A DNA stretch of 64,000 bases from Nanobdellota archaeon. Its GTDB lineage: Archaea > Nanobdellota > Nanobdellia > Parvarchaeales > Parvarchaeaceae. The notes below the pieces were generated by a model. It made no database searches and was not told the DNA's origin. It saw only the letters and a program-made list of their open reading frames with translations. The stretch spans positions 11,027 through 75,026 of the forward strand of contig JAJZIX010000002.1 in assembly GCA_021810345.1 (NCBI GenBank), written 5' to 3'. Made by a program: the position numbers and the translations under genes. The stretch's first letter is position 1. Each line of letters starts with the position of its first letter. Positions 29,575 through 58,610 of this stretch are shown one piece after another.

Positions 29575-29575
29575 G

Positions 29576-39449: not shown

Positions 39450-39713
39450 TTTAAGGTTATAAATAAGCTGCAGGTTTACAGTCAACTTCTGCTGCAGCCG
39501 CTTATGAATTTATAATTATTATATAATATGCTGGTGGGAGCGCTTTTCGCGGGGGAAGGCTCAAACTACATACTTAAATCCAATAAACCCCAAAATACAA
39601 CCTACAAGTAAAATCTTAGATTGATATAGTGGGCAAAATACAGGAAAAGAGGTAGCTGTTATAGTATTGTATCAGATAGTATTTAGGTTGTAAATAGTTA
39701 TGGTTCGTTAAAT

Positions 39714-40301
39714 CTATTTCAACAGCCTATTAACCCCATCTCTTGTGTATTTATTTGTTTTTTTAAGGTATCTCTCTAATTTATTTCTGTCTAATCTCTT
39801 TATTATCTCCCTTAAAACATCATCTGGCAGTGCTGATTTAAAGTATACAAAATCTATCAACGTTTTCTCTATGTCAGAAACCGGCATAAATCTATCTTTT
39901 ACTCTTTTTGGTTCATAACCAAAGAACATCTTCTTTTGAATATGCCTTATAATTATATTCCTACCAAGTATACTTCTCATACCTGTCCTGACCTTTCTTG
40001 TCGTTATTATAACTGGATTTGTTCCCTGCCCCCACAAGCCCTGCAAAGATAAAGCTTCTTGCAGACCATAATAAAATGGCTCGAATATGAAGCCTACAAT
40101 ATCCAAATCCTCATCAAATGAGTAGTACCCTCTCTTTAATCTTTTTATTTCACCTTTCTTTCTCAGATTATAAAGCATAAGCCTTGCATAATCCTTGCTT
40201 GCTCCCCCCTGCATTAAAAACAGTTCTGCATCCTTGATAGAGAAGTACTTCCTGCCACTAAAATGATCCATAAACTCTTTCTTATATTTTATTCTGCCCA
40301 T
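39714..40301 (-). CDS. AbiEi-like antitoxin/transcriptional regulator (type IV TA system)
   Basis: The N-terminal region LMLYNLRKKGEIKRLKRGYYSF matches the AbiEi wHTH RGxY signature. It overlaps the end of the upstream AbiEii-like gene by 13 nt. Confidence 0.5.
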   Translation of the reverse strand: MGRIKYKKEFMDHFSGRKYFSIKDAELFLMQGGASKDYARLMLYNLRKKGEIKRLKRGYYSFDEDLDIVGFIFEPFYYGLQEALSLQGLWGQGTNPVIITTRKVRTGMRSILGRNIIIRHIQKKMFFGYEPKRVKDRFMPVSDIEKTLIDFVYFKSALPDDVLREIIKRLDRNKLERYLKKTNKYTRDGVNRLLK

Positions 40302-40927
40302 ATCTTCAATGCTTCCAACATCTCCTGAAAAGTAGGTACCTTCCCCTCATAAATTATCGCTTTAAGATCACCTTCATCAACCGGTTCATCTATTTTTAAT
40401 AAAGATTTTTTAACAGACTCCTTTGTTCTTTTGTTATCTACGAATCTAGAAAGGAAATAAACATCATAGATATCCCTTATTTTACGCCTATTGTTGTAGG
40501 CTGACATCTTTTCCAGAATTAATTCCTCTGGCTTCAATGTCAATACTTCTATAGAACTACCATTTGCTTTTTGATAAGTCTTTAGAGTCCCGTGTATATT
40601 TTTTCTAGTTATCTCCAGGCTCATATGAGTAACATCATTCGATATTCGAGAGAAAAGAGTATTTGCAGTCTGTCTAAATTTTAATAGCTTTAAACCTCTT
40701 TTTTTCAATTCATTTTCTAACTTCGCCTTAAGATCCGCAGGATAATTGGTGTATAAATCTATGTCCTCCGAGAACCTTTTGCCACCATAACACCTCCATA
40801 TGGCTGTCCCTTCATGGATTACTGCATTGTCCCATAACGTATATACAACTTCTATCATTTCATCCTGCAATTCGGCTAACTCTTTTTGCGATTCCCTTTT
40901 GAGCTTGTAAATTATCGGAAATTCCAT
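40289..40927 (-). CDS. AbiEii-like nucleotidyltransferase toxin (DUF1814 family)
   Basis: Has the motif HEGTAIWRCYGGKRFSEDIDLY (GGTAL...R(F/L)SEDID(F/L)), diagnostic of AbiEii nucleotidyltransferases. It is 212 aa, shorter than the typical length. Confidence 0.6.
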   Translation of the reverse strand: MEFPIIYKLKRESQKELAELQDEMIEVVYTLWDNAVIHEGTAIWRCYGGKRFSEDIDLYTNYPADLKAKLENELKKRGLKLLKFRQTANTLFSRISNDVTHMSLEITRKNIHGTLKTYQKANGSSIEVLTLKPEELILEKMSAYNNRRKIRDIYDVYFLSRFVDNKRTKESVKKSLLKIDEPVDEGDLKAIIYEGKVPTFQEMLEALKIWAE

Positions 40928-41133
40928 AACTAACCTTAATTATACATATATATTATTATGGTTTATCCTATTTAAGTGTTTTCTTTAAGTGTCACGGCCT
41001 TCTTTATTTTTAGCTTATACATATTTAAAGAATGGCTGGCACTTAATTTTATAAAGTGTGAGCGGGAAAACTCACGATCTGAATCGTGGGATGAAAGCGA
41101 ACGTAAAAAATGGCATACGTAGGTAGGCTCTGA

Positions 41134-41182
41134 GGAAGCTTAAGCTTCCGATAGGAGCTGGAAGTCCATGAATTCATTCATG
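41134..41182 (+). promoter_or_regulatory. Two palindromes upstream of or overlapping the DUF218 start: GGAAGCTTAAGCTTCC (perfect 16-mer) and CATGAAT-TC-ATTCATG
   Basis: Read directly at 41134-41149 and 41167-41182. They lie in a 240-nt gap that also has the hairpins GTGAG-N8-CTCAC and CACGAT-N4-ATCGTG at 41058-41088. Confidence 0.3.
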
Positions 41183-41782
41183 GGAGGAAGTCACATGGTA
41201 TCTAAAGCGGTTTTGCTGTGCGTGCATGGCTACACGAAATTCCCCAGAGAGAAAGAGAAAAACTGGCAGGAAGTAGTGAAAGATCGGCTTTCTACCGCAT
41301 ATGAGCTTGCCAGGTTCTTTAGCTCAACAGGCATGACTATATATCTAGTAATCTCAGGAGGCACACTTAATAAAAATCAGGTTGAGGCAGACACAATCCA
41401 TGCTTATGCAAGAAAGAACTTTCCAGAGCTATTTACACTAGTTGCGGATGTTATACTAGAGAGAGAATCCAAGAATACACAGGAGAATGTGGATGAAATA
41501 CTTAAGTGGGCAGTAAAGAAGAATGCTATAATAGTGTCAATAAGCAGCAAGGATCATGCACCTAGAGTTGTAAAAGACTGGGCCTATGATAAACTTAGAG
41601 GCGGCCACATAATAATGGTTGCACCTTCCCACGAGACTTATGGCGAAGATTCAGATGCAGAGCCTATAATAATAGAATCTTCTTTTTGGGCTTATGACGC
41701 ACTAAAGAGCATATTTGAAATACCAGAAGAAAAGAGGAAACTTGTAAAGGAGAAACTCTTAAAAGGTTTAGAAGAAATGTAA
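41168..41782 (+). CDS. DUF218 (YdcF/ElyC-like) domain protein, paralog 1
   Basis: Has the ISGG...E(S/T)KNTQEN signature. The probable true start is ATG 41195 (MVSKAVLL), preceded by GGGAGGAAG. Confidence 0.65.
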   Translation: MNSFMGGSHMVSKAVLLCVHGYTKFPREKEKNWQEVVKDRLSTAYELARFFSSTGMTIYLVISGGTLNKNQVEADTIHAYARKNFPELFTLVADVILERESKNTQENVDEILKWAVKKNAIIVSISSKDHAPRVVKDWAYDKLRGGHIIMVAPSHETYGEDSDAEPIIIESSFWAYDALKSIFEIPEEKRKLVKEKLLKGLEEM

Positions 41783-41999
41783 CCCGACCACAAGCAATTT
41801 TGGAATCTAAGCAGCTTCTAACTGTATAAATCTTACCGTCCAAACAGAGATCGGTTGATATAGAAGCAAGCAGGCTAGTCGTTCACACTACTTTCAATAA
41901 TGAGATTAGGCTATCTAGTTATCCGATCTACGCTGGAAACGCCCCATATAACAAAAACTTATATACTCGGATTTACTCATTTTTATTGAGGCGGTTGTC

Positions 42000-42368
42000 A
42001 TGTCACTTCTCGGTGGGAATAAAAGCATGAATCAGGATAGTTCCCAAGGTGGAACTCCCAAATGGTTAAAAAATGGGGAAAAAATACTCGGTGAGTTCGG
42101 TGAATGCTCCGCCAGTATTTTACTAGACCTAAAAGAGAAACTCAGCAATAAAAAAGGCCTTTTCGCAAGTATGCAAAGAGGTTTAATAAATGCTCGGGAA
42201 TCCTTAGTTAAGTCCAGTCCATTCGGCAATTTTATGCTTTTTGTGAAGTTCAAGGATCAGGAACTGTCAAATCTAAACAAGTTTGTACAGTTACTTTTCG
42301 GCGAAACTGGCGCTGCAGCAGATTACAAAGCAAATGAGGCTCTAATAAGAAAAGATTACTTTCATTAG
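42000..42368 (+). CDS. Hypothetical protein (122 aa)
   Basis: ORF separated by 1 nt from the downstream membrane protein; no recognisable motif. Confidence 0.4.
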   Translation: MSLLGGNKSMNQDSSQGGTPKWLKNGEKILGEFGECSASILLDLKEKLSNKKGLFASMQRGLINARESLVKSSPFGNFMLFVKFKDQELSNLNKFVQLLFGETGAAADYKANEALIRKDYFH

Positions 42369-42369
42369 C

Positions 42370-43632
42370 ATGGTATCTAAAGCCTCTGATATAAAAGCAA
42401 AGAGAATGAACCCATTGATGGATATCTTTGTTTCTTTTACGTACCAATTTAAATCATTTTTTGGAACTCTTATAGCTCTTTCGATCCTGGTTAGTGTTAT
42501 ATTTTTACTTACAATGGGGGTAAATTCAATCATATTTGGACATGCGAGTCTCAATGTCCAGTCTATAGTTTCATCCGCAAAATCTTTGTTTGGAAATGCC
42601 GATACGCTTTTTAGTAGTAGTTTCAAAATAATTTGGTATATAGCTGTATTAGTCTCTGCGTTAGTTGGCGGGGCGATCCTGCCCGAGATCGGGTCTAGAT
42701 ATAGCTATTTCCTATTTGTGCAGCCAAGTAGCAGGCATTCAATAGTAATGGGGAGGTATCTGGCTGCGTTTGTTGGTTCTGCTATAATTATGGCTGTTTA
42801 TTATGTAACGGCGATATTAGTTTCACTTTATTTATTTTATTCAATACCATCGATTATCCCGCTTTTCATATCGTTTGCGGAGACTCTATTAATTATCCTA
42901 GCTGTTCTGGCTCTTGTGATCTTCATTGGGTCACCTTCGGATAACCCCCAAGCCGCATCTATGGCTACACTGTTTTTGCTTCTTTTTGGATTCTATCTTC
43001 TGCTGGGGTTCTTGCCAATTTTTTACCCTACCACGGAACCCTGGTTCATGCTGAATTACGCAGCCGAATCTACTTACAGTGTTTTTTCCAGCACATTCCA
43101 ACACATTAATGTTTCGAATCAATCAATCCAGCATCAGCCGATTCCCCCAATTGTTTCAGGATTAAATGGGTTCTATGTATCCACTGTTACAAGGAGTAAA
43201 CCACCCATCAATGGCCCCGCCGCTGGTGGAAACGATACTTTAATGATGTTTTTTAGTGAAAATTTCCCAGGCAGCATAATATTAGAATGGGTGAATTTCA
43301 CGTTTCCTAACCATACTAACTATTCTTATTTCGGTAATATGGTCATGACTCCGTCGGCCTCAATCGGGATCCCATTCAAATACAACATTTCCCCTGGAAC
43401 CACCTACCCCATAGGGGTCAATATCTCTTACCATCAATCGAGTACAAGTCAGTTGTTCAGCTCGTATGGGGTTGTATATGTAAACGCTTCTGATGTCTCA
43501 CCAGCATATAAATACATTGTTAGGGACACTTTCGAGCCTTATCCATTAGAATCTGCCGAGATTTCTACGGGTTATATAATATTCTTCCTATCTTTAGGTC
43601 TTCTAATATATGGCAGAAGAGAGGTTAAATGA
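42370..43632 (+). CDS. ABC-2-type permease-like membrane protein with a large C-terminal extracytoplasmic N-glycosylation-sequon-rich domain and a terminal TM
   Basis: 420 aa. Multiple TM helices in the first ~230 aa. The C-terminal 180 aa is S/T/N/Y rich with at least 9 N-x-S/T sequons. It overlaps the downstream ABC ATPase by 23 nt. Confidence 0.5.
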   Translation: MVSKASDIKAKRMNPLMDIFVSFTYQFKSFFGTLIALSILVSVIFLLTMGVNSIIFGHASLNVQSIVSSAKSLFGNADTLFSSSFKIIWYIAVLVSALVGGAILPEIGSRYSYFLFVQPSSRHSIVMGRYLAAFVGSAIIMAVYYVTAILVSLYLFYSIPSIIPLFISFAETLLIILAVLALVIFIGSPSDNPQAASMATLFLLLFGFYLLLGFLPIFYPTTEPWFMLNYAAESTYSVFSSTFQHINVSNQSIQHQPIPPIVSGLNGFYVSTVTRSKPPINGPAAGGNDTLMMFFSENFPGSIILEWVNFTFPNHTNYSYFGNMVMTPSASIGIPFKYNISPGTTYPIGVNISYHQSSTSQLFSSYGVVYVNASDVSPAYKYIVRDTFEPYPLESAEISTGYIIFFLSLGLLIYGRREVK

Positions 43633-44347
43633 GAGTGTTATGGCATCAATAAAATTAGTTAATGTGTATAAGCGCTTTGGTAAAAAATTAGTTCTTGACA
43701 ATATATCTTTCGAGCCCTCACGGAATGGGGCGATAGGCTATCTTGGCCCGAATGGTGCTGGTAAGACTACGACATTCAAGGTACTTCTTGGACTGTTAAA
43801 GCCGACTTCTGGGGCAGCGTACATAAATGGAATTGATGTAAGAAAGGATCGGAAAAATGCCCTCCTAAACGTTGGTTCGATAGTCGAATCTCCCGAAGGA
43901 CAGCCAGGCCAAACCGTGCGGGAAGCGATAGAGATGGCAGGCGCTTACAAAGGCCTAAATAAGCAGCAAGTTGCAGCTCAGATAGAAAACTATGAATCAT
44001 CGTTAAAGTTGCCCGACTTATCTTTTAAAATAAATGAACTGTCAAAGGGACTAAAACAGCGCGTCTCCCTGATGATGGCACTTATTGCAGAGCCGAATGT
44101 ACTCATACTTGATGAACCAACAGAGGGGCTTGACCCCGCCGAGAGGATAAGATTCATGCAGCTGATCAACAGCATAAAGAAGGACAGACTAATTCTTATA
44201 AGTTCGCATATTATCCCAGAAATCAGAGAGGTTTGTGATTCAATCATACTGATAAACAATGGAAAGATAATCGACAGTGGGACCATAACTGAACTTCAAA
44301 GAAAATACGGTTCATTGGAAAAGATGTACATGAAGATGGTGGGTTAA
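43610..44347 (+). CDS. ABC transporter ATP-binding protein
   Basis: Walker A GPNGAGKTT, signature LSKGLKQR, Walker B ILILDEP. Confidence 0.85.
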   Translation: MAEERLNESVMASIKLVNVYKRFGKKLVLDNISFEPSRNGAIGYLGPNGAGKTTTFKVLLGLLKPTSGAAYINGIDVRKDRKNALLNVGSIVESPEGQPGQTVREAIEMAGAYKGLNKQQVAAQIENYESSLKLPDLSFKINELSKGLKQRVSLMMALIAEPNVLILDEPTEGLDPAERIRFMQLINSIKKDRLILISSHIIPEIREVCDSIILINNGKIIDSGTITELQRKYGSLEKMYMKMVG

Positions 44348-44349
44348 GT

Positions 44350-44402
44350 CCAGTTTTTAATATAATTTTCAATTTTTATTTTCAGTTCTTGAAAACTGAA
44401 AA
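44350..44402 (+). terminator. T-tract-rich region plus a 9-bp hairpin (TTTTCAGTT-N6-AACTGAAAA) downstream of the ABC ATPase
   Basis: Several T5 tracts follow the stop codon directly, consistent with archaeal oligo-T termination. The hairpin was read directly. Confidence 0.3.
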
Positions 44403-44483: not shown

Positions 44484-45104
44484 ATGGGAAAAACTATTGT
44501 TAGCGTGTTTGGTTACAGCGAAAATATAGTTCCGGGAAACAATCCGTGGGAGCAGGTGGTTTCTGATAGATTTGAGGGCGCGATGGATGTTGCCAAATTC
44601 CTAAAGAGACATGATATAGACGTAGACATGTACATTTCGGGAGGAACAGTCTCTAATGAGACTGGTAGAGTAGAAGCCGATGCGATGCATGATTTTCTGA
44701 AGAAAAAATACCCTAACTTAGAAAGCATAGTGGATGAGGTAGTCTTGGACAAAGAATCCAAAAATACACAGGATAACGTCAATAAGATAAGCTCATATGC
44801 CAAGGAGGTTGGAGCCGATTCAGTCTTTGGAGTAAGCAGCAGAGACCATGTTGGCAGGATAATCACCCAGCAGGCATACTTGCAGAATAAGCCGGATCTG
44901 ACGATGGGGGTATTCCCATCTAATGGATCTTATAGCATTAACGGTTCTGAGGGTATACTACCAATAATACTAGAACCACCATTTTTTGGCCGGGATAACC
45001 CCAAGGGATTGTATAGTATGTACTCCAAATTGTTCAAACTGAATCCCTATCAAAAGGTGGAAATAGGTGAGGAGATCGTGAGAAAAGTAGACGGGAAGCA
45101 GTGA
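44484..45104 (+). CDS. DUF218 (YdcF/ElyC-like) domain protein, paralog 2
   Basis: Has YISGG...E(S/T)KNTQDN, about 35 percent identical by eye to the 41168 protein. A GGAGG ribosome-binding site lies 8 nt upstream. Confidence 0.65.
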   Translation: MGKTIVSVFGYSENIVPGNNPWEQVVSDRFEGAMDVAKFLKRHDIDVDMYISGGTVSNETGRVEADAMHDFLKKKYPNLESIVDEVVLDKESKNTQDNVNKISSYAKEVGADSVFGVSSRDHVGRIITQQAYLQNKPDLTMGVFPSNGSYSINGSEGILPIILEPPFFGRDNPKGLYSMYSKLFKLNPYQKVEIGEEIVRKVDGKQ

Positions 45105-45328: not shown

Positions 45329-46282
45329 ATGGAGAATGTCGCTGTAAGAATAAGGAATTTAAGCAAGAGATATGAAAATGGCGGAAAAGTGACGAAAGCA
45401 CTAAAAAACATAAATCTGGACATAAGGGAAGGGGAAATATTGGGGGTGCTTGGCCCAAATGGCGCGGGTAAGACAACTTTAATAAACATTTTGGCGACGT
45501 TGCTTATACCGGATAAAGGTACTATCAATGCATTCGGGATAGATGTGCTGAAAGAACCAAACAAGTTTAGAGAGATTATAGGCTATGCTGGACAGGACAG
45601 TGAAAAATCAGCATATTATAGGCTTACTGCTTTTGAAACTTTGGTGTACTTCTCATATACATTTAGAGACGTCAAAAAAGAGGACATAGAAAAGGAAATA
45701 AAATATATAAGTAAAAGGATAGGTTTCTCGCGAAAATTAAACAGCCAGTTCTCCACACTGTCTGGGGGAGAAAAACAAGCGACTGTGATAATGCGGGCGT
45801 TGGTCCACAAACCAAGATTGTGCTTCCTCGATGAACCATCAAAGTCACTAGACCCCATAACAGCTAAAAAATTTAGAGCTTTTTTAAAAGATTTTGTAAG
45901 GAAAGATAAGATTACAACGATAATCACAACCCACAATATGTCTGAAGCAGAGGAAATATGTGATAGAATAGTGCTGATAAATAAGGGCAGAATAAAATTT
46001 ATTGGTACACCTTTAGAATTCAAAAATATAATGGATTATACCGACAAAATAATACTTGATATACATCTAAATAAATTACTGATCTCAAAATTTAAGAAAA
46101 TACCTTCAGTAGTAAGAATAAAACAGACGATTGGATCCACAGTGATATACACAAATAAAGCAAATCTATCGCTCTTGGCCTTGACTTCTATACTGAAGAA
46201 TGAAAACTTAGAACCAAAAATAACAGTAAAAAGTGCTACGGTAGAGGATGCATTCATAAAGGTGATGGAAAATGGCAAATAA
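45329..46282 (+). CDS. ABC transporter ATP-binding protein (ABC-2 exporter type, with C-terminal accessory domain)
   Basis: Walker A GPNGAGKTT, signature LSGGEKQ, Walker B CFLDEP. Confidence 0.85.
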   Translation: MENVAVRIRNLSKRYENGGKVTKALKNINLDIREGEILGVLGPNGAGKTTLINILATLLIPDKGTINAFGIDVLKEPNKFREIIGYAGQDSEKSAYYRLTAFETLVYFSYTFRDVKKEDIEKEIKYISKRIGFSRKLNSQFSTLSGGEKQATVIMRALVHKPRLCFLDEPSKSLDPITAKKFRAFLKDFVRKDKITTIITTHNMSEAEEICDRIVLINKGRIKFIGTPLEFKNIMDYTDKIILDIHLNKLLISKFKKIPSVVRIKQTIGSTVIYTNKANLSLLALTSILKNENLEPKITVKSATVEDAFIKVMENGK

Positions 46283-47087
46283 GATTAAGGAGATGTTTAA
46301 GGTATTTCGTATGTCATTATGGATGAACATCACTTTGCTTAGAAGATACAATTTAAATTTCATATTCTGGGTGATTTACGCGGCAATAAACGCCACTTTA
46401 ATGCTTCTTTTCATACCGCTTTATTCTGCCTCTATCTCTGCGATAGGGACTAAAAGCATGATTTCTTTTATTCTGATAGGTGCAGCAATGCTGCCACTCC
46501 TTGAAGAAACAGTTTCTAGCGTTGCCGGGGATGCCAACTTTCAACTGTGGTCTGGAGTTATAAACTACTCCTTTACTACTCCTATTTCCAGATACATATA
46601 CTTCAGTTTGAACAATATCTCTGAAGTAGTGATCTCTCTGGTCGTTTATTCCCCAATTTATCTGGCTGCAATACTTTTTGCTTTTAGTTATTTAACACCT
46701 CTGGGTCTCCTGCTTTCGTTGGTATGCTTCGCTATAGGATTTCTCAGTATGCTCCAGTTAGGGCTTATGCTTGGTGCTGGAATACTTCTTTTTAGAAAAG
46801 TACACGCATTGGAAGGCATAATTATTCTATTTGTTACATTCTTAAGCGGGGCCTTTATACCCTTGCAGGTGCTGCCAAGCTCAATAAATTACGCCGCTTT
46901 ATTTGTACCTTTGACCTCAAGTCTCTACCTTGTAAGGTACTATCTTATCGGGTCGTCATTGATAGCCCCAGTGTATTTAATGTGGATAATTACACTAAGC
47001 GAATTGATAGTATTCGCCGTAATAGCCAAGTTTATATTCGCAGCTGCTGAGAAGAAAGCAGAAAAAATCGGCTTTAACTACATATAA
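46272..47087 (+). CDS. ABC-2 family transporter permease
   Basis: 271 aa, 6 TM. Overlaps the ATPase stop by 11 nt. Confidence 0.7.
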   Translation: MANKIKEMFKVFRMSLWMNITLLRRYNLNFIFWVIYAAINATLMLLFIPLYSASISAIGTKSMISFILIGAAMLPLLEETVSSVAGDANFQLWSGVINYSFTTPISRYIYFSLNNISEVVISLVVYSPIYLAAILFAFSYLTPLGLLLSLVCFAIGFLSMLQLGLMLGAGILLFRKVHALEGIIILFVTFLSGAFIPLQVLPSSINYAALFVPLTSSLYLVRYYLIGSSLIAPVYLMWIITLSELIVFAVIAKFIFAAAEKKAEKIGFNYI

Positions 47088-47242
47088 GCCGAAGAAATTA
47101 ATAAGGATATTTAAATTTTGCTGATGATGCCTAGAGTAGTGGAAAAGGATGAGCTTTTAGCAATTCTTAGGTATTTGAACAGAAACTAGTATACCATTTA
47201 AATATATTATTAAGCTTTGTATGATAATTAATCTTATCATAT

Positions 47243-48250
47243 ATGGCTGAAAGCATTTTTCGTATAAAAAAAGCAGTTAATGGAATAAAAGGTAGACGGC
47301 TAGGCTTAAGTGGGCCGATTAAGATACAAAGTGTGAAACAAATAAAGTCAGGAGAAACGCATTACAATTATCTTCTTATAATAAATAGCAGGAACTTTCT
47401 GTTGAGACTGACCTCGGTAAGAAAAGACAATAAAGGCAAAAACAGTTGGGGAGCAGCCCGTATAAACATGGAATTTGACGGGATAAAAAGCATAGAAAAA
47501 CTTGGGATAGCTCCAAAGGTCCATTATAAGGATACTTCCTGCAGGGTTCTAAGCAAACCATTTGTCATATCCGATTATGTTCCGGGCGAACCAGTCATAA
47601 GAACGACTAAGAAAGACTTAAAATCGCTTGCCTTCCTTCTTGCAGAGCTGCATAGGATACACGATGTAAATGGATTAAGAAGTGAGCCGGTTAAAGATTA
47701 CAATAAGGGATACATTAAAAAAAGAGTTGACATGATAACTGATACTGGTTTTAGATATGTAAACAGGCATTTCAAAACAGATTTAATGGAAGCGCACAGG
47801 AAGATAGAACATATAAGGCTGAAAAAGCAAAAACTATCTTTAATACACGGCGATATAAGCAAAGACAACCTACTGCGCACGGAAAACGGCCTGAAACTTA
47901 TAGACTGGGAAAGCGTTAGGCTTTCGGAACCGCAGTTCGAGATCGCTACAGCATTGGAGAGATTGAATCTCAACGGCCAGAAGAGAAAGCTTTTCCTCTC
48001 AGAGTACTTAAAACACTCAGAAAAAGCAAGTTTAGACGAACTTGAAGACTACGAAAAAATAAGGTGTTTTGATAGATTGCTGTGGGCTATTTCTGAATTT
48101 GTAAAACTGAAAGAAGAGATAACGGAAAAGGAGAAGGCAAGACAGAAATCCCCATCAAAATACGTAGATAATGCTCATCTGGAATTCTTGAGGTGCAAAT
48201 CTTTGGGGTTGTTTCCCAAAGAATCTGTCTTGATAATACACCAAAAGTAG
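47243..48250 (+). CDS. Aminoglycoside phosphotransferase / choline-ethanolamine kinase-like (APH fold) protein
   Basis: Catalytic loop LIHGDISKDNLL (HGDxxxxN) and metal-binding IDWES. Confidence 0.65.
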   Translation: MAESIFRIKKAVNGIKGRRLGLSGPIKIQSVKQIKSGETHYNYLLIINSRNFLLRLTSVRKDNKGKNSWGAARINMEFDGIKSIEKLGIAPKVHYKDTSCRVLSKPFVISDYVPGEPVIRTTKKDLKSLAFLLAELHRIHDVNGLRSEPVKDYNKGYIKKRVDMITDTGFRYVNRHFKTDLMEAHRKIEHIRLKKQKLSLIHGDISKDNLLRTENGLKLIDWESVRLSEPQFEIATALERLNLNGQKRKLFLSEYLKHSEKASLDELEDYEKIRCFDRLLWAISEFVKLKEEITEKEKARQKSPSKYVDNAHLEFLRCKSLGLFPKESVLIIHQK

Positions 48251-49168: not shown

Positions 49169-49172
49169 TGAA

Positions 49173-49394
49173 ATGAAAGATAAAAGAAAACCCTTTGATT
49201 ATTGCAGAGGTATTGCAAATTTTTTGTATGCCAATTTTCTAGAAAAAATTAAAAAATGCGGCCTAGTTTCATTAGATTTATGGTATATTCAAAAATGTCT
49301 TCGATGTCTTATTCTAGAATTTATTAAAAACTTAAAAGATCTTGAAAATGAATTTTTGGCGGAACATGTAAGTGATAATCAGATCGCAGAGTAA
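49173..49394 (+). CDS. Hypothetical small protein (73 aa)
   Basis: ORF only. Confidence 0.25.
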   Translation: MKDKRKPFDYCRGIANFLYANFLEKIKKCGLVSLDLWYIQKCLRCLILEFIKNLKDLENEFLAEHVSDNQIAE

Positions 49395-50087: not shown

Positions 50088-50183
50088 TACAGTTAGAGGA
50101 TCAATCTAAAAGAAAGGTATTTATACCCAACCATATCATTACTTTAATATAATAAATTTGGAGGATAAATTACGGCAAAACGA

Positions 50184-50290
50184 TCGACCTTGGAGGAGTT
50201 TTTAACGTATGAAGTCAAAAAATTTGAATGATTGCCTGGAAGCTGAGCCAAAGAAGTCGCGTTTCGTAAAGACTAAGCACCTCTTAGGCA
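50184..50290 (+). repeat. Copy A of a ~90-100-nt direct repeat (RBS plus first 26 codons); copy B lies at 50840-50936
   Basis: 69 consecutive identical nt (aaaaatttgaatgattgcc...cacctctta). The flanking codons differ only synonymously, and both copies have ttggag(g/a)ag upstream. Confidence 0.9.
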
Positions 50291-50829
50291 TATTGGGCCT
50301 GGGTTCAGGAACTGGGTTAGTAGAGATTGACACTCTGGACAGATTAAATGATGTCGGAGCTGTAACAACCCCTACCTCTGTATCCTATACTCCTGGAGGG
50401 CATTACCTCTTAAGAGATCTCGCAGATAATCCAATATATCACGATTTATCGCATTTTTTCGTTAATATAGGTATTTCCGGCGGTCCGAACAATACTCTGG
50501 GCATACTTGCAGCTGCAGCGGCGCTTACTATTGGAGGTTTATCAGCAAGATCATACATAAAAGATACTAAAAACTCTTCTAATACTAAACCAAGTCTCAA
50601 AAAGGCAGCGATATCATCGGCATTTCTAGCAGGCGGCATTTACATAGGATCACAGTCATTTCTTCCGGTGGTTAATGATGTGTTATACAAAGCCCCTATA
50701 TCAACATTGGGGTATGCAGCTGCGGGGGCTGTAGGGGTATTGAGTAGCATATATCTTGGAATCGACTACCTAAAGGCCAGGCACGCGTATAAAAAGCAGG
50801 ATGGAAATGCGTACCTAAAAGATACTTGA
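50209..50829 (+). CDS. Hypothetical protein with three Gly/Ala-rich (glycine-zipper-like) hydrophobic segments; its N-terminal 30 aa are shared with the next gene
   Basis: N-terminus MKSKNLNDCLEAEPKKSRFVKTKHLL(G)ILG. Segments such as TLGILAAAAALTIGGL, LAGGIYIGSQSFL and LGYAAAGAVGVLSSIYLG. GGAGGAG upstream. Confidence 0.5.
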   Translation: MKSKNLNDCLEAEPKKSRFVKTKHLLGILGLGSGTGLVEIDTLDRLNDVGAVTTPTSVSYTPGGHYLLRDLADNPIYHDLSHFFVNIGISGGPNNTLGILAAAAALTIGGLSARSYIKDTKNSSNTKPSLKKAAISSAFLAGGIYIGSQSFLPVVNDVLYKAPISTLGYAAAGAVGVLSSIYLGIDYLKARHAYKKQDGNAYLKDT

Positions 50830-50856
50830 TAGGGGGCCACAAAAATTGGAGAAGTA

Positions 50857-51461
50857 TGAAATCGAAAAATTTGAATGATTGCCTGGAAGCTGAGCCAAAG
50901 AAGTCGCGTTTCGTAAAGACTAAGCACCTCTTAAGTATATTAGGCGGGGATAAAATTATAACACCCTTTAAAAATAGGGTGGATAGCCGCAAGCTTAGAC
51001 ATAAAAAGGGCCAGCCAGTCGGATATAAAGATGTAAAAGATTACCTAGATGGGTTTTTGCAATATTTCGATAAGATTTATTCGGGTGTTACAGGGATAGT
51101 ACTATATGGTTCAATGGCTAGGGGTACGGGCAGGATAGACAGTGATATAGATTTATTGTTTTTCACCGATGATGAGGACAAAACCTATCAGAAAATCGAG
51201 CAGTGTAAAGGCGATTTCTCGTCTGGAGAATACGCAGATTTACTCATTTGTAGAGGCCTGCCTCGAGTTCGGCTGTCTACAGCCATGATGCTAAACAGTG
51301 AATTTGAGCGGATCGTAGAGATATGTCGTAGGAGTGGAGGCGGACTTGCGTACAACTATGCAGATGACGGCATTGTACTCTATGATGCGGGTGGCCGGAC
51401 AAAGAGATACTTAGAAGAACTGCGGACTGAACCTCATATAAAAGACATGATTATACCTTAA
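50857..51461 (+). CDS. Minimal nucleotidyltransferase (Pol beta superfamily, MNT-like) carrying the same N-terminal 30-aa leader as the preceding gene
   Basis: Nucleotidyltransferase motif GIVLYGSMARGTGRIDSDIDLLFF. The start is set at the ATG (MKSKNL) preceded by GGAG rather than the TTG at 50826 used by the ORF track. Confidence 0.6.
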
Positions 51462-51645: not shown

Positions 51646-52059
51646 ATGAGTACGACGATACAAATAGATGATGATTTAAGAAAAAGGCTGGAAGAGCTTA
51701 AGAAGCATAAAAGAGAATCTTTAAATGAAGTTATCCATAAAATAATCGCTAAATTACCAAAGAAAATAGCTCCTAACGATGTCGAAAACCTGAAGAAGAT
51801 AGCTGTGCCTGTGCTCAAAGGTTATGGAGTAGAGAAAGCGGCAGTTTTCGGGTCATTCGCAAGAGGCGATGCGACAGAAAATAGCGATATAGACCTATTA
51901 GTGAAATACAAAGAAGGCACTTCCCTGTTTGATGTAGTAAGACTCCAAAATCGTTTAGAAGCGGAACTAGGAAGAAAAGTAGATCTGGTTTCGTATGACT
52001 TTATAGACAAATATATAAGAGAACGTATACTTAAGGAGAGCATTTCCTTATATGAATGA
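51646..52059 (+). CDS. mntA: MntA-like minimal nucleotidyltransferase antitoxin with an N-terminal ribbon-helix-helix extension
   Basis: N-terminus TIQIDDDLRKRLEELKK is RHH-like. Nucleotidyltransferase motif AAVFGSFARGDATENSDIDLLV. Overlaps the downstream HEPN gene by 8 nt. Confidence 0.75.
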   Translation: MSTTIQIDDDLRKRLEELKKHKRESLNEVIHKIIAKLPKKIAPNDVENLKKIAVPVLKGYGVEKAAVFGSFARGDATENSDIDLLVKYKEGTSLFDVVRLQNRLEAELGRKVDLVSYDFIDKYIRERILKESISLYE

Positions 52060-52396
52060 AAAAGATGATTTAGTCTATTTAGGCCATATAATAGATGCGA
52101 TAAATGGGATAAAAGAATACACAAATGGAATGAAAAAGGAGGGCTTCTTGAAGGATAGAAAGACACAGGATGCAGTTATCAGAGAGATAACGATAATAGG
52201 GGAAGCAACAGCGTTTATAAGCGATCTATTCAAAGAAAAACATAGCAGCATACCTTGGACGGAAATGAAGGGAACAAGAAATAGAATTGTACATGGCTAC
52301 TTTTCAATAGATCTTAACATAGTATGGCAGCTAATAATCAGGGATCTACCAGAGCTTGAAATTAAGCTCAAAGAATTAGCAAATGAAGGCAATTAA
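52052..52396 (+). CDS. hepT: HepT-like HEPN (DUF86) RNase toxin
   Basis: Has the Rx4HxY motif RNRIVHGY and the conserved SIPW region. Size and position after an MNT fit a type VII MntA/HepT module. Confidence 0.75.
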   Translation: MNEKDDLVYLGHIIDAINGIKEYTNGMKKEGFLKDRKTQDAVIREITIIGEATAFISDLFKEKHSSIPWTEMKGTRNRIVHGYFSIDLNIVWQLIIRDLPELEIKLKELANEGN

Positions 52397-52492: not shown

Positions 52493-52765
52493 ATGACAAA
52501 GAATGTAAATGAGGTATTGCATTATCCTAGACTTGATACAGTATTGATGATTGAGGAGGCGATAAAAAACGCTAAAGAGTACCCCTCAAAAAGACAACTT
52601 TGGCTTTCATTGAAGAAAAAGGTCATGTATCAAACTTTTAACATAGTTATAGATTATTTGGTAGAGTCAAACAAAGTGGTCATCGATAAGGAAGGCAAGG
52701 TTATTTGGATATGGGATCCGGAAGGCGTAAAAAAGTATATGAAAGAGGGGGTAATAATACGATGA
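52493..52765 (+). CDS. Hypothetical protein (90 aa)
   Basis: ORF with a TATA-like tttatataat ~28 nt upstream; no recognisable motif. Confidence 0.4.
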   Translation: MTKNVNEVLHYPRLDTVLMIEEAIKNAKEYPSKRQLWLSLKKKVMYQTFNIVIDYLVESNKVVIDKEGKVIWIWDPEGVKKYMKEGVIIR

Positions 52766-52852
52766 AGCAAATAAATGTGGTTCTAGTTGATAAAAAACTT
52801 GAAAATCAAAACTTTACAGATAGGAGTAGCATAATAAAGTTAGAAGTTTAAT

Positions 52853-53254
52853 ATGACAAAATACAAGACACTAAAAAGCGCTGTTTTAGGCAAAAATGGG
52901 GGTGTTTGCTGGGTTTTGCTCACGATAGGTATTGTTCTATCACTTGTGGGGTTCACCGTAATGCCGTGGATAAATATAGTATATGGGGGATTAGTAAATC
53001 ATCTTGCCGGGGTTATAATAGGTTTTTTGCTAATGGCAGTAGGTATATCTATTCTCCTTTTGCTATATCCAAAACTTAATAGTATAAAGCTTAAGCAATC
53101 AAAAGAAAGAAAAAGATTCGTTTATGGACTGGCTATATTTTTGATAATAGCTATCTTTAGTCAGATACCACTGCTTATTTTAGTTTCCAGTACTTTACAA
53201 CTGTTCTCCGCAGAACTGATATTAGGAATATTACTAGGGATGTTTTTGCTATAG
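52853..53254 (+). CDS. Hypothetical membrane protein (4 TM, 133 aa)
   Basis: Hydrophobic helices. Confidence 0.45.
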   Translation: MTKYKTLKSAVLGKNGGVCWVLLTIGIVLSLVGFTVMPWINIVYGGLVNHLAGVIIGFLLMAVGISILLLLYPKLNSIKLKQSKERKRFVYGLAIFLIIAIFSQIPLLILVSSTLQLFSAELILGILLGMFLL

Positions 53255-53529: not shown

Positions 53530-54042
53530 TCACTGTCTGGAAGCTTCTTCGTCGTCAACTATTTTTTGCACAGTAGGTTTCTGGCGCGCTACTTGTTTCC
53601 GAGCTTCGGGGGATACGGGGCTTTTTATGTATCCATCTGCCTCGTTTTCCAGTAGTTTCTCCCAATTACCTGGCTTATAATTGTAAATATGAATGCCACC
53701 AGATTCATAAACATGCAAGCTCAATACATTGTGCCGCTTAGTCCCAAAAAAGCCATTTGGGATTATATCTACACTTAAAAATGAGAGGTAATCACTCGGT
53801 TTTTTGTATTCGATTCCAAATAAGGCCCCTCCCACATTAATATCTGCTTTATAACTACCCTGCTCATCAATGCATCCCTTATTTCTTTCACTTTGATAAG
53901 TTAGCAGCATTTTCGAAATAGAATACAACTTATTGACTCTTTTTAGTCGTTTTTCCCCTTCGGCCCTCAATAACTCATCTAAAGAAGTATCCCCCCCATC
54001 ATTTTTCTGTATATAGCCATCAGTCTCCATTATCCCCACCAT
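53530..54042 (-). CDS. Hypothetical protein, paralog A of an unrecognised family (170 aa)
   Basis: Shares ERNKGCIDEQGSYKADIN and NYKPGNWEKLLEN with the 54138-54983 protein. Conserved 5' flank ggtataaatt-ATG and 3' motif. Confidence 0.5.
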   Translation of the reverse strand: MVGIMETDGYIQKNDGGDTSLDELLRAEGEKRLKRVNKLYSISKMLLTYQSERNKGCIDEQGSYKADINVGGALFGIEYKKPSDYLSFLSVDIIPNGFFGTKRHNVLSLHVYESGGIHIYNYKPGNWEKLLENEADGYIKSPVSPEARKQVARQKPTVQKIVDDEEASRQ

Positions 54043-54137
54043 AATTTATACCTTATACTTGCTACTATTTAATATCTTAGAAAACAACTGATATAAATAT
54101 CTTATGTTTTTGAGCTTTGATTTCTACCTTTACAGGA

Positions 54138-54983
54138 TCATATGAGAACACTCTGGTTCTCCAGTAGTTTCTCCCAATTACCGGGCTCATAAACATCTAA
54201 CTTTATACGTTTACTCCTCTCATCTTTACTTGCGCTTAACACCATATCTGGGTTAAAATATCCACGGACACCCCCTCGGCTCAAATCTACGGTTAAATGT
54301 GAATAAGTAATATGATCATGGTACATGACTATGAATAACCCTTCTTTAGTTCTAACACCCAGTAGGTAATCTGTGTAATGCTGATCTGGCCCTTCTTTTT
54401 TCAGGCCCTTACTGATTACTAGGGGCACCAAGTTGTCGTATAAATTTCTAGCTTTTTTTAGCCTATTGTACATCTCATTCTTTAATACTTCATCGAGATA
54501 TTTTATCGATGTCTTTATTGTATTACCTTTCGGTGTTAGCTTTCTATACTCCTTTTCTAAAGCATCCTCACATTTGTCTGGCGTGTAAGAATAGAGATAG
54601 AAATCCTCGTTTTTAAAGTACGACAAAGCCGCTACTCCTTTCAGTACATGCCTAAAGATACTCTTTTGATACACATACGTTCCTATAAAAGATTTATTGG
54701 GCTTTTGAGGATCATTAGAATACGTTATAACAAGAGGTTTCTTTTCCGAAGAGATATCTGCCATGTAAGAACCCTCCTTATTAATGTATCCCTTATTTTT
54801 CTCCGCCCGATCAATTAGTAATTCTAATGAAGCTCCAATTAATTTTTCAGCTCGTTGTATTCTTAGTTTCTCTTCTTCGGTTTGTACTGCGGGAACTGTG
54901 AAAACTTCTATTCCCAACAGTTCTGCTAAACTTTTTCCATTTATCTTACCTAAAAGGTTAACTTCATTTCTGCGTTGCGCCAT
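54138..54983 (-). CDS. Hypothetical protein, paralog B of the same unrecognised family (281 aa, with a ~110 aa central insertion)
   Basis: Shares EKNKGYINKEGSYMADIS and VYEPGNWEKLLENQ with paralog A. Same conserved flanks. Confidence 0.5.
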   Translation of the reverse strand: MAQRRNEVNLLGKINGKSLAELLGIEVFTVPAVQTEEEKLRIQRAEKLIGASLELLIDRAEKNKGYINKEGSYMADISSEKKPLVITYSNDPQKPNKSFIGTYVYQKSIFRHVLKGVAALSYFKNEDFYLYSYTPDKCEDALEKEYRKLTPKGNTIKTSIKYLDEVLKNEMYNRLKKARNLYDNLVPLVISKGLKKEGPDQHYTDYLLGVRTKEGLFIVMYHDHITYSHLTVDLSRGGVRGYFNPDMVLSASKDERSKRIKLDVYEPGNWEKLLENQSVLI

Positions 54984-55309: not shown

Positions 55310-55570
55310 TTATATCTTTCGAGATCCATTCGATAGATGTAACCTTTCCCCCCTTCTTTTTGATATATTGATAGTATAAGCCAAATCATACTTTGGGGTG
55401 AAGGTACAAGCCAAATCATCCTTTTGGGTGAAGGATTTTCTATATACTAAGGTGGACATTTCTAAACAGTATAACGCCCCATCGTAGTCCTTTTGCCTTA
55501 TACCAGCACTAGCCAGATCAAACCATCTGGTAGCGCTATCCATTGCTTTTTTAGACACTATTCTTTCCAT
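55310..55570 (-). CDS. Hypothetical small protein downstream of an MNT gene, possibly a divergent mini-HEPN partner; contains an in-frame 30-nt tandem duplication
   Basis: 86 aa, overlapping the end of the 55558-56145 nucleotidyltransferase by 13 nt. The N-terminal helix (ATRWFDLASAGIRQKDYDGALYCLEMS) and the C-terminal RRGERLH (Rx4-6H-like) are HEPN-like but weak. Confidence 0.3.
   Translation of the reverse strand: MERIVSKKAMDSATRWFDLASAGIRQKDYDGALYCLEMSTLVYRKSFTQKDDLACTFTPKYDLAYTINISKRRGERLHLSNGSRKI
55381..55440. repeat. Tandem duplication of a 30-nt unit (ccaaatcatactttggggtgaaggtacaag / ccaaatcatccttttgggtgaaggattttc)
   Basis: Read directly. In frame within the 55310-55570 ORF (DLACTFTPKYDLAYT). 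Confidence 0.85.
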
Positions 55571-56145
55571 TCCAGTACCAAATTATTACCCATTTTTACC
55601 CAGGCATATCTTATTTTCTTAAGATTGCTAATAAATTCACTTAATATTCCATCTTTTTCATATAATATTGTCCCCTCCTCTAATAATGATATATAAAATG
55701 GTCTAAACTCTGCTAGATCCTCTTTCTTTAAAATAACCTCACTTATGTACAGATGTAATCCTTTTGCAACTAATTTCTGTCTCATGGGATCAATTTCCTT
55801 AATTATTTGCTCTAACTTATCGAAATAGGTTAATACGTTTCCATCAACAACGACTAATATGTCTATGTCACTATAACTATTAAAAGTTCCCCGAGCAATT
55901 GATCCAAAAAGCATAATTCCAAGAACATTTTTATCCTGTTTAACCTGGTCTACAAATGTTAAGATATAATTTTGTATATCCATGTCTAATTTCAAAAAAT
56001 TTACTTTTTTCTTTATAAATTCATTAATAACATCAGAAAATGTAACTTTTTTATTCGACTTTGTCTGTATCATGGCCTTTGCATCAACAAGTGCATTATA
56101 CGCATTTTTATCAAGTAAAGTCTGCTTATATTTTTTGTTTCTCAT
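55558..56145 (-). CDS. Minimal nucleotidyltransferase (MNT family) with N-terminal RHH-like and C-terminal extensions
   Basis: Nucleotidyltransferase motif IMLFGSIARGTFNSYSDIDILVVVD. The N-terminus KKVTFSDVINEFIKKK is RHH-like. Confidence 0.7.
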   Translation of the reverse strand: MRNKKYKQTLLDKNAYNALVDAKAMIQTKSNKKVTFSDVINEFIKKKVNFLKLDMDIQNYILTFVDQVKQDKNVLGIMLFGSIARGTFNSYSDIDILVVVDGNVLTYFDKLEQIIKEIDPMRQKLVAKGLHLYISEVILKKEDLAEFRPFYISLLEEGTILYEKDGILSEFISNLKKIRYAWVKMGNNLVLEWKE

Positions 56146-56316: not shown

Positions 56317-56880
56317 TTATATTGTCTTTACTTCTTTCTTCCTTTTATCTCTTAATTCAAATATAACCGCTTGTATCTTCTTAGCTTCATCAACATTTAA
56401 TGCTCTAAGATAATTTACACTTGATATACGCGCATTATTTAACACTATCATCCCACCAATAGGAGATATATATAGAGAGGTTAATCCTAATATCCTATCT
56501 GCAATAGATCTGTTCATCACAACATCTTGGACCATCTCAAGAGGTAATGAATCTACCGAGTAACCTATTATACCTCTTCCGCTTATTAGCCTATTATTTG
56601 TTATCCAGTATCTATATTTATTGTAAGATACTATAGAAACGAAAATCCCAATTAGTATAACGGCAAACATAATACCAAAGAAGGATATAAGAATATATGG
56701 AGTTGGAAGAGGTGGAGTACCGGTTGCTAAGAGTAAGGAGCTAAAAACCGCAATAATAATACCAGCTATAACCACTCCAATGAATCTCTGCAGTATGAAA
56801 CCCCTTTTGTTTGGTCTAACCTCGTATTCTATAGTTTCCCCTTGCTGCAAAGAAAAAGGTAATTCTGCTTCTGTCGCCAT
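56317..56880 (-). CDS. Bacterial-PH (bPH_2/DUF304, YdbS/YdbT-like) domain membrane protein
   Basis: Two TM helices follow an N-terminal cytoplasmic stretch, then a PH-like C-terminal domain; the layout is typical of DUF304. Confidence 0.5.
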   Translation of the reverse strand: MATEAELPFSLQQGETIEYEVRPNKRGFILQRFIGVVIAGIIIAVFSSLLLATGTPPLPTPYILISFFGIMFAVILIGIFVSIVSYNKYRYWITNNRLISGRGIIGYSVDSLPLEMVQDVVMNRSIADRILGLTSLYISPIGGMIVLNNARISSVNYLRALNVDEAKKIQAVIFELRDKRKKEVKTI

Positions 56881-57283
56881 TATAATAAGCTGTTTATAAG
56901 ATATTTAAGCTTTTCTGCATAGTATAAATATGCTAAATAATGGGTTAATCGTTATAATAAATAAATTAATATTAAGATAATATTATTGTTATCTATATAT
57001 TGAATATTATATCACTTTATTTATAATAAGCCTGACGCTTTTGCTGCTTTTTATAAGGCAGATGATGATAATTATAGTATTGATTATAATATTATAAATA
57101 ATAAAATAGTACTATCGAATTTAATATTATTTTATCATACTATATATTTGAATAATCCTTGTGCGTATGCAGTTATCCCAACCAATATAGTGTATGTGTA
57201 ATTCGTAGAAAAATAAATTATTACAATAATGGGATTTATTTTTATTGCCCCGCCAGCAGCAAATGTATACCGCGTCCTTTGTT

Positions 57284-57892
57284 TTAGCTCTTTTTATTTG
57301 ACTTGCCGTTGTCATTAGACTTTTTATCTCTAAGCTCTTCTCTCAAAAAATTGTATATTACTGGTGCAGCGCTGAGCAATGATAGTGGTATTACTAAAGA
57401 GGCATATGTAAGCTGACTGAAATAATTGTACATCCCGCTGTCTAACATATAATTATGTGCGGTGACGACTGTTTCAGCTAATCCTACCCCAAGATAAAGA
57501 CTACTTGTTACTTTCTTTTGGCTTAAACGTGAATACTTATGAGCGAGTGCTCCGAGTAAGTAGCCTCCATACAGGAAAAGGAACATGCTTGAGACCGCTT
57601 CTGGTATAAGTCCCAGTTTCTGTATAAAAATTGATGGGGCGTAGTTACCCTCATGCAATCCCTTATACTCTATGCCGAAGTATGTTGAAATCCTATCGGC
57701 GAGCATCGTAATAGCAGAAAATGAAAAGGCGTACTTTGATTGTTTTATTGCATTTTTTATTGATATTAGGTGCTTGTACAAAGAATTCTTAACCCTGTGC
57801 CCAAAATTATATCTCTTGTTTACAGGATTAGATGCATTGTATTCATACCCGTTTTGGCTGCTCTCATCGAGCAGGTTGTCGAGAGAATGCAT
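57284..57892 (-). CDS. Hypothetical membrane protein (202 aa)
   Basis: Hydrophobic helices and a Lys/Asn-rich C-terminus. Adjacent to the 57896 gene. Confidence 0.4.
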   Translation of the reverse strand: MHSLDNLLDESSQNGYEYNASNPVNKRYNFGHRVKNSLYKHLISIKNAIKQSKYAFSFSAITMLADRISTYFGIEYKGLHEGNYAPSIFIQKLGLIPEAVSSMFLFLYGGYLLGALAHKYSRLSQKKVTSSLYLGVGLAETVVTAHNYMLDSGMYNYFSQLTYASLVIPLSLLSAAPVIYNFLREELRDKKSNDNGKSNKKS

Positions 57893-57895
57893 TGC

Positions 57896-58333
57896 TCAAG
57901 GCGAATATCCAGAGCCAGACAGTCCATTTATGTATTGATCTAATACTCTGTCTATAACTCCCTTATTTATAAGATATTTTGCGGACTTAACCAATGCGTT
58001 GGAAGATCTGTTAATGCGGCTGTTATATATGAAACCGACCATCCCGGCCACCATAATTCCTGTGGTTAACGCCGATCCGTCTACTAATGTCATCAGTGCC
58101 CCGCCAGCAGCCATTGTAGCGGTTAGTGCCGTAATACTGTTGTATAATGCATTTGGGTTGTAGCCGGCCTTTACTGCAGTATCTCTCACATAAGAATCGA
58201 ATGCATATTTCGTCATTACATTAGGGAATCCCAAATTGGACAGGTAGTTTCTTTCCTTTAATATTACTTTATTTATCTTCTCTGCGGGTACACCGTTCGC
58301 TTTTAGAAGATCTGCAAGTTTTTTTGATACCAT
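57896..58333 (-). CDS. Hypothetical protein (145 aa) with a Gly/Ala-rich hydrophobic segment
   Basis: ORF carrying the segment TATMAAGGALMTLVDGSALTTGIMVAGMVGFI. Confidence 0.4.
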   Translation of the reverse strand: MVSKKLADLLKANGVPAEKINKVILKERNYLSNLGFPNVMTKYAFDSYVRDTAVKAGYNPNALYNSITALTATMAAGGALMTLVDGSALTTGIMVAGMVGFIYNSRINRSSNALVKSAKYLINKGVIDRVLDQYINGLSGSGYSP

Positions 58334-58610
58334 AGTTCAACCTCCTATTATCTAACTTTTCATTACTATTAAAGGATTATACTGGTATATAAAGTTTTAG
58401 GCATGGGAAAGTATTTAAAGATGCTAAAATAATATCTAAATAATGGAGAAGAAAGAAAAGGTCGATAAGAATTCAAAGGACGAAGCTGGTTGCCCTTGCG
58501 GTGGGAGCTGTGGCTGCTCAGATTTCTATTGACGGCAGTTAGACATTTACAGATTTGTTATATTCAATAGTAGAAAGTTTTATATATAACCAGCCGTCAA
58601 TGATAATCAA

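Follow-up and report, generated by a model that had tools for sequence, protein, structure and literature searches.

A probable long-lived flexible region beside cytochrome b in the population genome of a Candidatus Parvarchaeota archaeon

Variation between conserved flanks

We analyzed 64,000 nucleotides of Nanobdellota archaeon DNA (assembly GCA_021810345.1, contig JAJZIX010000002.1, positions 11,027 to 75,026 of the forward strand; hereafter the window), in which an AT-rich stretch at 39500-58400 had originally been predicted to be an accessory island between core genes. The results indicate that the interval from ~39.45 to 59.28 kb is probably a long-lived flexible (hypervariable) region, a piecemeal mosaic within the population genome that came about without a site-specific integrase event. 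The host is a Candidatus Parvarchaeota (ARMAN-related, DPANN) archaeon, and the nearest relatives of its cytochrome b (38010-39449) come from acid-mine-drainage metagenome-assembled genomes assigned to Candidatus Parvarchaeota / ARMAN-4/-5. The conserved anchors are cytochrome b to the left and a dodecin/ABC-2 cluster to the right, and between them different genes occupy one locus in closely related genomes. The region would have been assembled by transposition, recombination between repeats or paralogues, block translocation and the homologous exchange of entire alleles for those of divergent lineages. Transposition is documented directly, as are deletion or fusion events at paralogues and direct repeats; we infer allele replacement through flanking homology and block translocation.

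Exact-protein look-ups retrieved a conspecific set of dozens of contigs, with 99.3-99.9% identity to the window. Structural differences within this set lie mostly to the right of 48.3 kb, within 48.3-59.3 kb. In five of these contigs (L051, L053, L032, L034, and L036), 5,429 bp are inserted at 48363-48371 (positions 11130-16558 in L051); the inserted DNA ends in perfect 16-bp terminal inverted repeats (GGCTTTGCACATAAAT) and is flanked by a duplicated 9-bp target (TATAAGTAG). This transposon has a GC (guanine plus cytosine) content of 34% and encodes a DDE_Tnp_1 transposase together with two N6_N4 methyltransferases and an MvaI/BcnI endonuclease, which make up a complete type II restriction-modification (R-M) system. 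DDE_Tnp_1 is a Pfam family that takes in IS4/IS5-type elements. By its transposase, perfect inverted ends, and target duplication, the conspecific element resembles unit transposons with passenger genes; it differs in having a complete type II R-M system as cargo, and the window holds only the empty site. L077, an unrelated IMG/VR contig of 64% GC, carries at 4081-9505 an element equal in size, with the same 16-bp ends, its own 9-bp duplication (CCTCCTCGA), and a transposase 39% identical, and the transposon family with these conserved ends is therefore widespread. The exact end pattern was present on eight IMG/VR contigs, among which L077 alone is a true distant relative; the other seven were set aside, as they look like chance single-end matches and have no similarity to the transposon or its proteins.

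Losses and exchanges at repeats were also observed. A 647-bp unit flanked by 92-nt direct repeats (50207-50298 and 50854-50945, 95% identical) is lost in L051, and in L042 the paralogous genes 53530 and 54138 (genes are named here by start coordinate) are fused at a shared 40-nt repeat. In L045 and L046, positions 53633-56922 are swapped for ~490 nt encoding a third member of the 53530/54138 family. Farther left, a 141-bp indel (41054-41194) is missing in three conspecific contigs. Approximately 15 conspecific contigs end inside 41.1-57.6 kb, nine of them at 52.57-53.46 kb. Next to cytochrome b, the 39.5-48.3 kb portion is present in every conspecific contig that reaches far enough, and since all sampled contigs carry that half, it is not strain-accessory. 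We rejected the possibility that the window is an assembly chimera, as many independent assemblies span both junctions.

The right limit of the region was resolved by comparison with contig L069, of a slightly more distant lineage, which is 97-100% identical to the window over 59.3-64 kb but only 63-80% identical in nucleotides over 57.9-59.28 kb (edges at ~57900 and ~59280). Its alleles at 7821-9163 share 62% (57896 protein) and 68% (kinase-like protein, gene 58611) amino acid identity with those of the window. The number of synonymous substitutions per site (dS) for these two genes is 1.0-1.3, with nonsynonymous-to-synonymous ratios (dN/dS) of 0.15-0.26, against a dS of 0.04-0.15 for their neighbors; the alleles would thus be old and brought in by recombination, rather than products of fast adaptive change. 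The kinase gene at the right-hand border had been taken for a core gene, a view that does not hold, as it is among the most variable genes between lineages whose flanks are nearly identical. The true right edge is the start of dodecin, and the kinase-like gene lies inside the variable region. Elsewhere in its variable part, L069 has, in order, a 49587 homologue, a new 138-aa (amino acid) gene, a 50209 homologue, a 40%-identical nucleotidyltransferase, a 127-aa gene, a 53530 homologue, a 170-aa gene, and a 57284 homologue.

A more specific and rather speculative proposal, which we regard as unlikely, would make the right half (~48.3-59.3 kb) a balanced-polymorphism cassette locus of an obligate episymbiont, in which selection on host attachment or virus recognition would maintain diversity among the ancient 57896/58611 alleles and the lineage-restricted orphan families 53530/54138 and 48389. 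If true, this would be a DPANN counterpart of surface-antigen or self-recognition loci.

Gene content and relatives

The features of the region are as follows (TA, toxin-antitoxin; ORF, open reading frame; ABC, ATP-binding cassette).

39450..39713, no strand: left junction; the nucleotide match to L001, a second sister lineage, ends at the cytochrome b stop codon (39449), with a compositional change point at 39500
39714..40301, minus strand: AbiEi-like antitoxin/regulator (PADLOC AbiEi E=1.8e-21; Pfam AbiEi_4 slightly under cut-off; 85.6% amino acid identity to the sister-species gene in the same place)
40289..40927, minus strand: AbiEii-like nucleotidyltransferase toxin (Pfam AbiEii E=4.7e-16; PADLOC E=2.5e-21; 82.5% amino acid identity to the sister species)
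41020..44382, plus strand: module A, with DUF218a (41168-41782), a 122-aa ORF, a 420-aa multi-pass membrane protein, and an ABC ATPase (43610-44347)
44484..45104, plus strand: DUF218b, common to the sister species beside AbiE (87.9% amino acid, 87.4% nucleotide identity)
45329..48250, plus strand: backbone block of DrrA-like ABC ATPase, ABC-2 permease, and APH-family kinase, by domain matches; 85-88% nucleotide identity to L060/L063
48363..48371, no strand: empty target site TATAAGTAG, lacking the R-M transposon that conspecific strains hold
48389..49394, plus strand: 259-aa multi-pass membrane protein (GC 28.6%) and 73-aa ORF, the most AT-rich coding DNA of the region; only 47% amino acid identity in L056/L060
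49395..49586, no strand: AT-rich spacer, 88.5% AT
49587..51461, plus strand: 166-aa membrane protein, 206-aa protein (50209), and 201-aa nucleotidyltransferase (50856-51461), bearing the 92-nt direct repeats
51646..52396, plus strand: TA pair of MNT (51646-52059) and HepT (52052-52396), 8-nt overlap; HepT-like E=1.8e-30; Polbeta/NTP_transf_2
52493..53254, plus strand: 90-aa ORF and 133-aa membrane protein, where the nine conspecific contigs stop (between 52.57 and 53.46 kb)
53530..54983, minus strand: two orphan paralogues of 170 aa (53530) and 281 aa (54138), which recombine mutually and are replaced in some strains
55310..56145, minus strand: MNT-like nucleotidyltransferase (55558-56145) and 86-aa partner remnant (55310) holding a 30-nt tandem duplication
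56317..56880, minus strand: bPH_2 (YdbT-like) membrane protein, within the segment 53633-56922 that L045/L046 replace
57284..57892, minus strand: 202-aa membrane protein, whose homologues in ARMAN-4-like genomes lie ~1.6 kb past cytochrome b
57896..59246, divergent pair: 57896-58333 (minus) and kinase-like 58611-59246 (plus); 63-80% nucleotide identity to L069, edges sharp near 57900 and 59280; right limit of the variable region

Domain scans agree with the original prediction that the cargo is made up of defence/TA, transporter, and unknown genes, not housekeeping genes. It can be grouped into abortive-infection/TA modules (AbiEii/AbiEi, MNT/HepT, and a decaying MNT pair), two exporters, an APH-family small-molecule kinase, and lineage-specific membrane or orphan proteins, and its likely role, as predicted from these genes, would be strain-level variation in defence and cell-envelope properties. 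At least two recognized defence/TA systems stand together, namely AbiEi/AbiEii (by PADLOC) and MNT/HepT (by Pfam), with R-M systems in variants.

The adjacent genes for AbiEi (winged helix-turn-helix) and AbiEii (nucleotidyltransferase) are predicted to form an abortive-infection / type IV TA module. AbiEii lies upstream of AbiEi with a 13-nt overlap, and this toxin-first order is also kept in the sister species; the canonical AbiE order is abiEi-abiEii, opposite to the arrangement here. The neighboring MNT and HepT genes show the GSx10DxD-type and Rx4-6H motifs of type VII TA systems, with the MNT motif GSxxRG...DIDLLV (FGSFARGDATENSDIDLLV) and the HepT motif RNRIVH (Rx4H) both intact as read from the translations. 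The other MNT-like gene (55558-56145) has a partner cut to its N-terminal 86 aa at 55183-55570 (minus strand), with the 30-nt tandem duplication at 55374-55434. Intact partners of 134-144 aa occur in L013, and the pair in the window is a decaying TA pair.

Two DrrAB-like ABC-2 exporters are encoded, with a DUF218 gene ahead of each. The 53530/54138 orphan family has five representatives at E<=1e-3 among 1.84 billion, and a single-sequence AlphaFold model of the 53530-54042 product reached a predicted local distance difference test score of 43, too low for use of the fold. The products of 57896 and 58611 are a 145-aa membrane protein and a 211-aa kinase-like protein, and the latter falls into only two 90%-identity clusters among 5.8 billion non-redundant proteins. 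Metagenome contig scans with the kinase-like protein and with the APH protein yielded no match. We also note that the 206-aa 50209 protein and the 201-aa nucleotidyltransferase, though unrelated, share their first 30 residues and upstream bases through the 92-nt repeat.

Relatives of these genes show that parts of the region are old. Sister species contigs L064-L068 (cytochrome b 93.5% identical in amino acids) have the order cytochrome b - AbiEi - AbiEii - DUF218b. Nucleotide identity between the window and the sister species is 83.9-87.4% for AbiEi/AbiEii/DUF218b and 85.8-87.3% for core genes, and dS is 0.74 for AbiEi, 0.61 for AbiEii, and 0.40 for DUF218b, compared with 0.90 for cytochrome b. 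In both species alike, AbiE has a GC content at third codon positions (GC3) of 0.35-0.39, with cytochrome b at 0.53-0.60. Given the in-place sharing, core-like divergence, and same low GC, AbiE and DUF218b, along with their low GC, are older than the species split. Because the low GC of AbiE predates the species, reading low GC as recent import is unsafe at this locus.

Beyond these shared genes, the two species diverge in content. Module A (41020-44382) is missing in the sister species, where 244 bp stand instead, and past DUF218b the sister species has genes with no relation to those of the window, an MNT/HepT pair of its own, and ends that vary by strain, one strain carrying an MmeI-like R-M gene and another a thermopsin gene. 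In L001, an unrelated gene stands directly 3' of cytochrome b. The ABC/ABC-2/APH block (45259-48250) and genes 49587 and 50209 are 84-88% identical in nucleotides to L056, L060, and L063, in other contexts: in those contigs, the block follows GNAT and M20-peptidase genes, and CYTH, GNAT, PemK, MazG-like, and Schlafen-like helicase genes lie between APH and the 49587 homologue. In the more distant L057-L059, APH stands amid housekeeping genes, with a small Pkinase gene and one of 66 aa at a distance of ~0.8 kb. DUF218b is 64% identical in amino acids to an L002 gene downstream of cytochrome b, and in L013, L002, and L064-L068, the same neighborhood is likewise variable and lower in GC, with TA or R-M genes. 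Several genes of the region are therefore part of an old cytochrome b / APH / kinase neighborhood that was invaded and rearranged repeatedly.

The description as an accessory island between core genes thus stands in part. The cargo is non-housekeeping, the block is compositionally distinct, and its right part varies among strains; AbiE and DUF218b, however, are shared in place with the sister species, and 39.5-48.3 kb occurs in all conspecifics. Full synteny in close relatives was not found: the block is non-syntenic in other species and differs between near-identical strains. Genes of the region have dN/dS values of 0.09-0.16, against 0.04 for cytochrome b, a level of purifying selection that argues that they are in use.

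Base composition and competing explanations

The compositional distinctness of the block was confirmed by several measures. GC is 43.1% at 1-39500, 35.9% at 39501-58400, and 42.0% at 58401-64000, and a two-point maximum-likelihood search of the whole window, with coordinates not preset, placed change points at 39500 and 58700 (log-likelihood gain 141). A weaker break at ~48000 separates parts of 37.8% and 34.4% GC, and gene GC inside the block is uneven, from 0.28 to 0.43. Mean gene GC3 is 0.359 inside (n=26) and 0.479 outside (n=49; Mann-Whitney p=9.6e-11), GC at first codon positions (GC1) differs less (p=0.003), and GC at second positions (GC2) shows no significant difference between the 26 and 49 genes, so the shift sits chiefly at third codon positions. 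The codon-usage argument is based on GC3 and not on a synonymous-codon likelihood score, which did not clearly separate the groups. Tetranucleotide usage in the stretch correlates with that of the core at r=0.76, compared with 0.86-0.93 for equal-sized core chunks against the remaining core, so that windowed GC, GC3, and tetranucleotides all deviate. Coding density is 82%, versus 95% in the left flank. The original prediction that spacers are often above 80% AT held for 49395-49586, the sole intergenic stretch beyond that value, but not for 56881-57283 (76.4%) or the remaining spacers, which are 60-78% AT within the stretch and similar (60-70%) in the flanks.

As predicted, the borders lack signs of an integration event. 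No integrase or recombinase was detected in a Pfam scan of 30 proteins from 39.7 to 61.1 kb, no transposase was found in the window by Pfam or by tblastn with the conspecific transposase, and no tRNA target lies at the borders, the sole tRNA of the window being tRNA-Asp at 3419-3494. A search of the edges found no border-spanning direct repeat above chance. The acquisition mechanism had been called unclear; this is now answered in part by transposition with inverted ends and target duplication and by repeat-mediated deletions, and allele replacement would be a further route.

These data bear on whether the stretch is a classical genomic island, in which a single acquired segment of ~19 kb lies between cytochrome b and the kinase/dodecin genes and has since lost its integration machinery. 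The compositional step is sharp at both ends, the tetranucleotide signature is deviant, the cargo is non-housekeeping, and the block is missing at this locus in genus-level relatives, all as such an event would leave them. It is largely refuted, though, by the presence in the sister species of AbiE and DUF218b in place with core-like divergence. The missing integrase, tRNA target, and flanking direct repeats in the window also speak against it, as do the uneven GC inside the block and sub-blocks that differ in history, context, and distribution and are not present or absent as one unit. We therefore hold a single acquisition to be quite improbable.

A second possibility is that the region is native and purely vertical, without horizontal transfer, and that dispensable, weakly expressed genes and longer spacers have drifted to AT under relaxed selection. 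Such drift is consistent with low GC kept in orthologues across species, dN/dS values 2-4 times that of cytochrome b, the lower coding density, GC2 values that do not differ significantly, and homologues of several genes near cytochrome b in other Parvarchaeota. It does not explain why gene content differs between lineages with 97-100% identical flanks, nor the documented transposon insertion with its target duplication, the alleles with dS >1 between flanks of dS 0.04-0.15, or the different TA and R-M cargo in the same slots of relatives. Vertical descent as the whole explanation is thus unlikely.

A degraded integrated virus or plasmid was also considered, since such elements often have AT-rich DNA, numerous small orphan ORFs, and TA modules. 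None of 10 orphan proteins matches PHROGs, and blastn of 48301-56300 against 50,697 phage and 72,556 plasmid records was without a match. Three proteins of the region had no relatives on IMG/VR contigs, and the Pfam scan was negative for capsid, terminase, replication initiator, integrase, and partition genes; on this evidence, a viral or plasmid origin is very hard to credit. We separately rejected a replication origin, for which the 88.5% AT spacer and a GC-skew sign change near 53 kb were the candidate signs, since the skew change corresponds to the switch from plus- to minus-strand genes, and neither an Orc1/Cdc6 gene nor a repeated origin-box-like motif was found in the region.

We return to a long-lived flexible region assembled piecemeal as the probable explanation. 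Its AT-richness most likely comes from the mobile or flexible gene pool, with weaker selection helping, rather than from a single recent import. The transposon, as incoming DNA that is seen directly, has a GC content of 34%, and that of relatives found alongside is 33-37%; among genus-level relatives, 33-37% is usual, with a few at 42-44%. The tetranucleotide correlation of the stretch with low-GC relatives (0.80-0.82) exceeds that with its own core (0.76), which is only suggestive of such relatives as donors.

Several points count against this explanation. The low GC of genes that predate speciation fits weaker selection or a local mutational regime as well as it fits an AT-rich mobile pool, the two being equally possible. 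Contig ends are a proxy only for population heterogeneity, standing in for read recruitment. Contigs L056, L060, and L063 possibly do not belong to the same sister species as L064, and an apparent recombinant, L035 (described below), could be an assembly chimera. Finally, we infer what selection lies behind the variability, what lowers the GC, and, from sister species known by incomplete genomes, the direction of events (insertion or deletion, translocation or independent gain).

Known systems and further variable stretches

The region can be placed among known types of genomic variability, and we regard it as a well-resolved new DPANN example of an ordinary, known kind of feature rather than a new kind of element. 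Hypervariable "metagenomic islands" were defined in Salinibacter, Haloquadratum, and marine bacteria (for example, PMC2800850). The region shares with them a fixed location between conserved flanks, gene content that varies among near-identical strains, an envelope- and defence-biased cargo, GC below that of the core, and turnover by recombination rather than by integrase. It differs in that the host is a genome-reduced DPANN archaeon, that 39.5-48.3 kb is fixed in the sampled population, and that the likeness is drawn from contigs instead of read recruitment. Defence islands are similar in that a 17-kb span contains AbiE, MNT/HepT, and a second MNT pair, and variants or relatives carry type II and type IIG R-M, PemK, and a Schlafen-like helicase at the same locus; here, however, about half of the DNA is given to exporters, a small-molecule kinase, and orphan membrane proteins without a known defence role, and the defence function is predicted. 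Low-GC, TA-bearing islands have been predicted in acidophilic archaea, including Parvarchaeota, in an IslandViewer survey (PMC12302457). Habitat and phylum are the same, as are GC below that of the host and TA genes in the cargo; the survey stresses tRNA-flanked islands, whereas the region here has neither tRNA nor integrase and is resolved at strain level with breakpoints. With the classical integrase-mediated island, the region has deviant base composition in common, but not an integrase, a tRNA/tmRNA insertion with repeats, or presence and absence as a single unit.

DPANN archaea have tiny, host-dependent genomes, and it is useful to know where these still vary. In this Parvarchaeota population, a dedicated slot of ~20 kb is kept in which TA, R-M, exporter, and orphan membrane genes are exchanged by transposition, recombination between paralogues, and probable cross-species allele replacement. 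The locus offers defined breakpoints and a cargo transposon that looks active, and it contains orphan genes with candidate roles in defence or host interaction.

Further variability was seen to the left of the region. A second variable region of normal GC lies at 26927-35840, where the window has a sugar-uptake/glucoamylase/alpha-amylase/GT2 cluster and the sister species has Hexapep...UvrD/PDDEXK genes. Conspecific contig L033 has an extra 2.1 kb (Hexapep, a 272-aa gene, and a truncated UvrD) between 35742 and 35833, absent from the window. L035 resembles the sister species on the left side of 35842 and the window on its right side, and is either a recombinant or an assembly chimera. Comparison of 35833-37415 with L064 8191-9767 gave dS values of 0.14 for 35833 and 2.1 for the methyltransferase gene 36774, with cytochrome b at 0.90, and such uneven dS in the core flank indicates probable inter-species recombination tracts outside the AT-rich stretch as well. 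Upstream, conspecific contig L054 has (positions 1-633, left of window position 38067) an HxlR-like gene together with a 501-aa cytochrome b whose N-terminus differs, and this stretch is 70-73% identical in nucleotides to DNA upstream of cytochrome b in ARMAN-4-like genomes.

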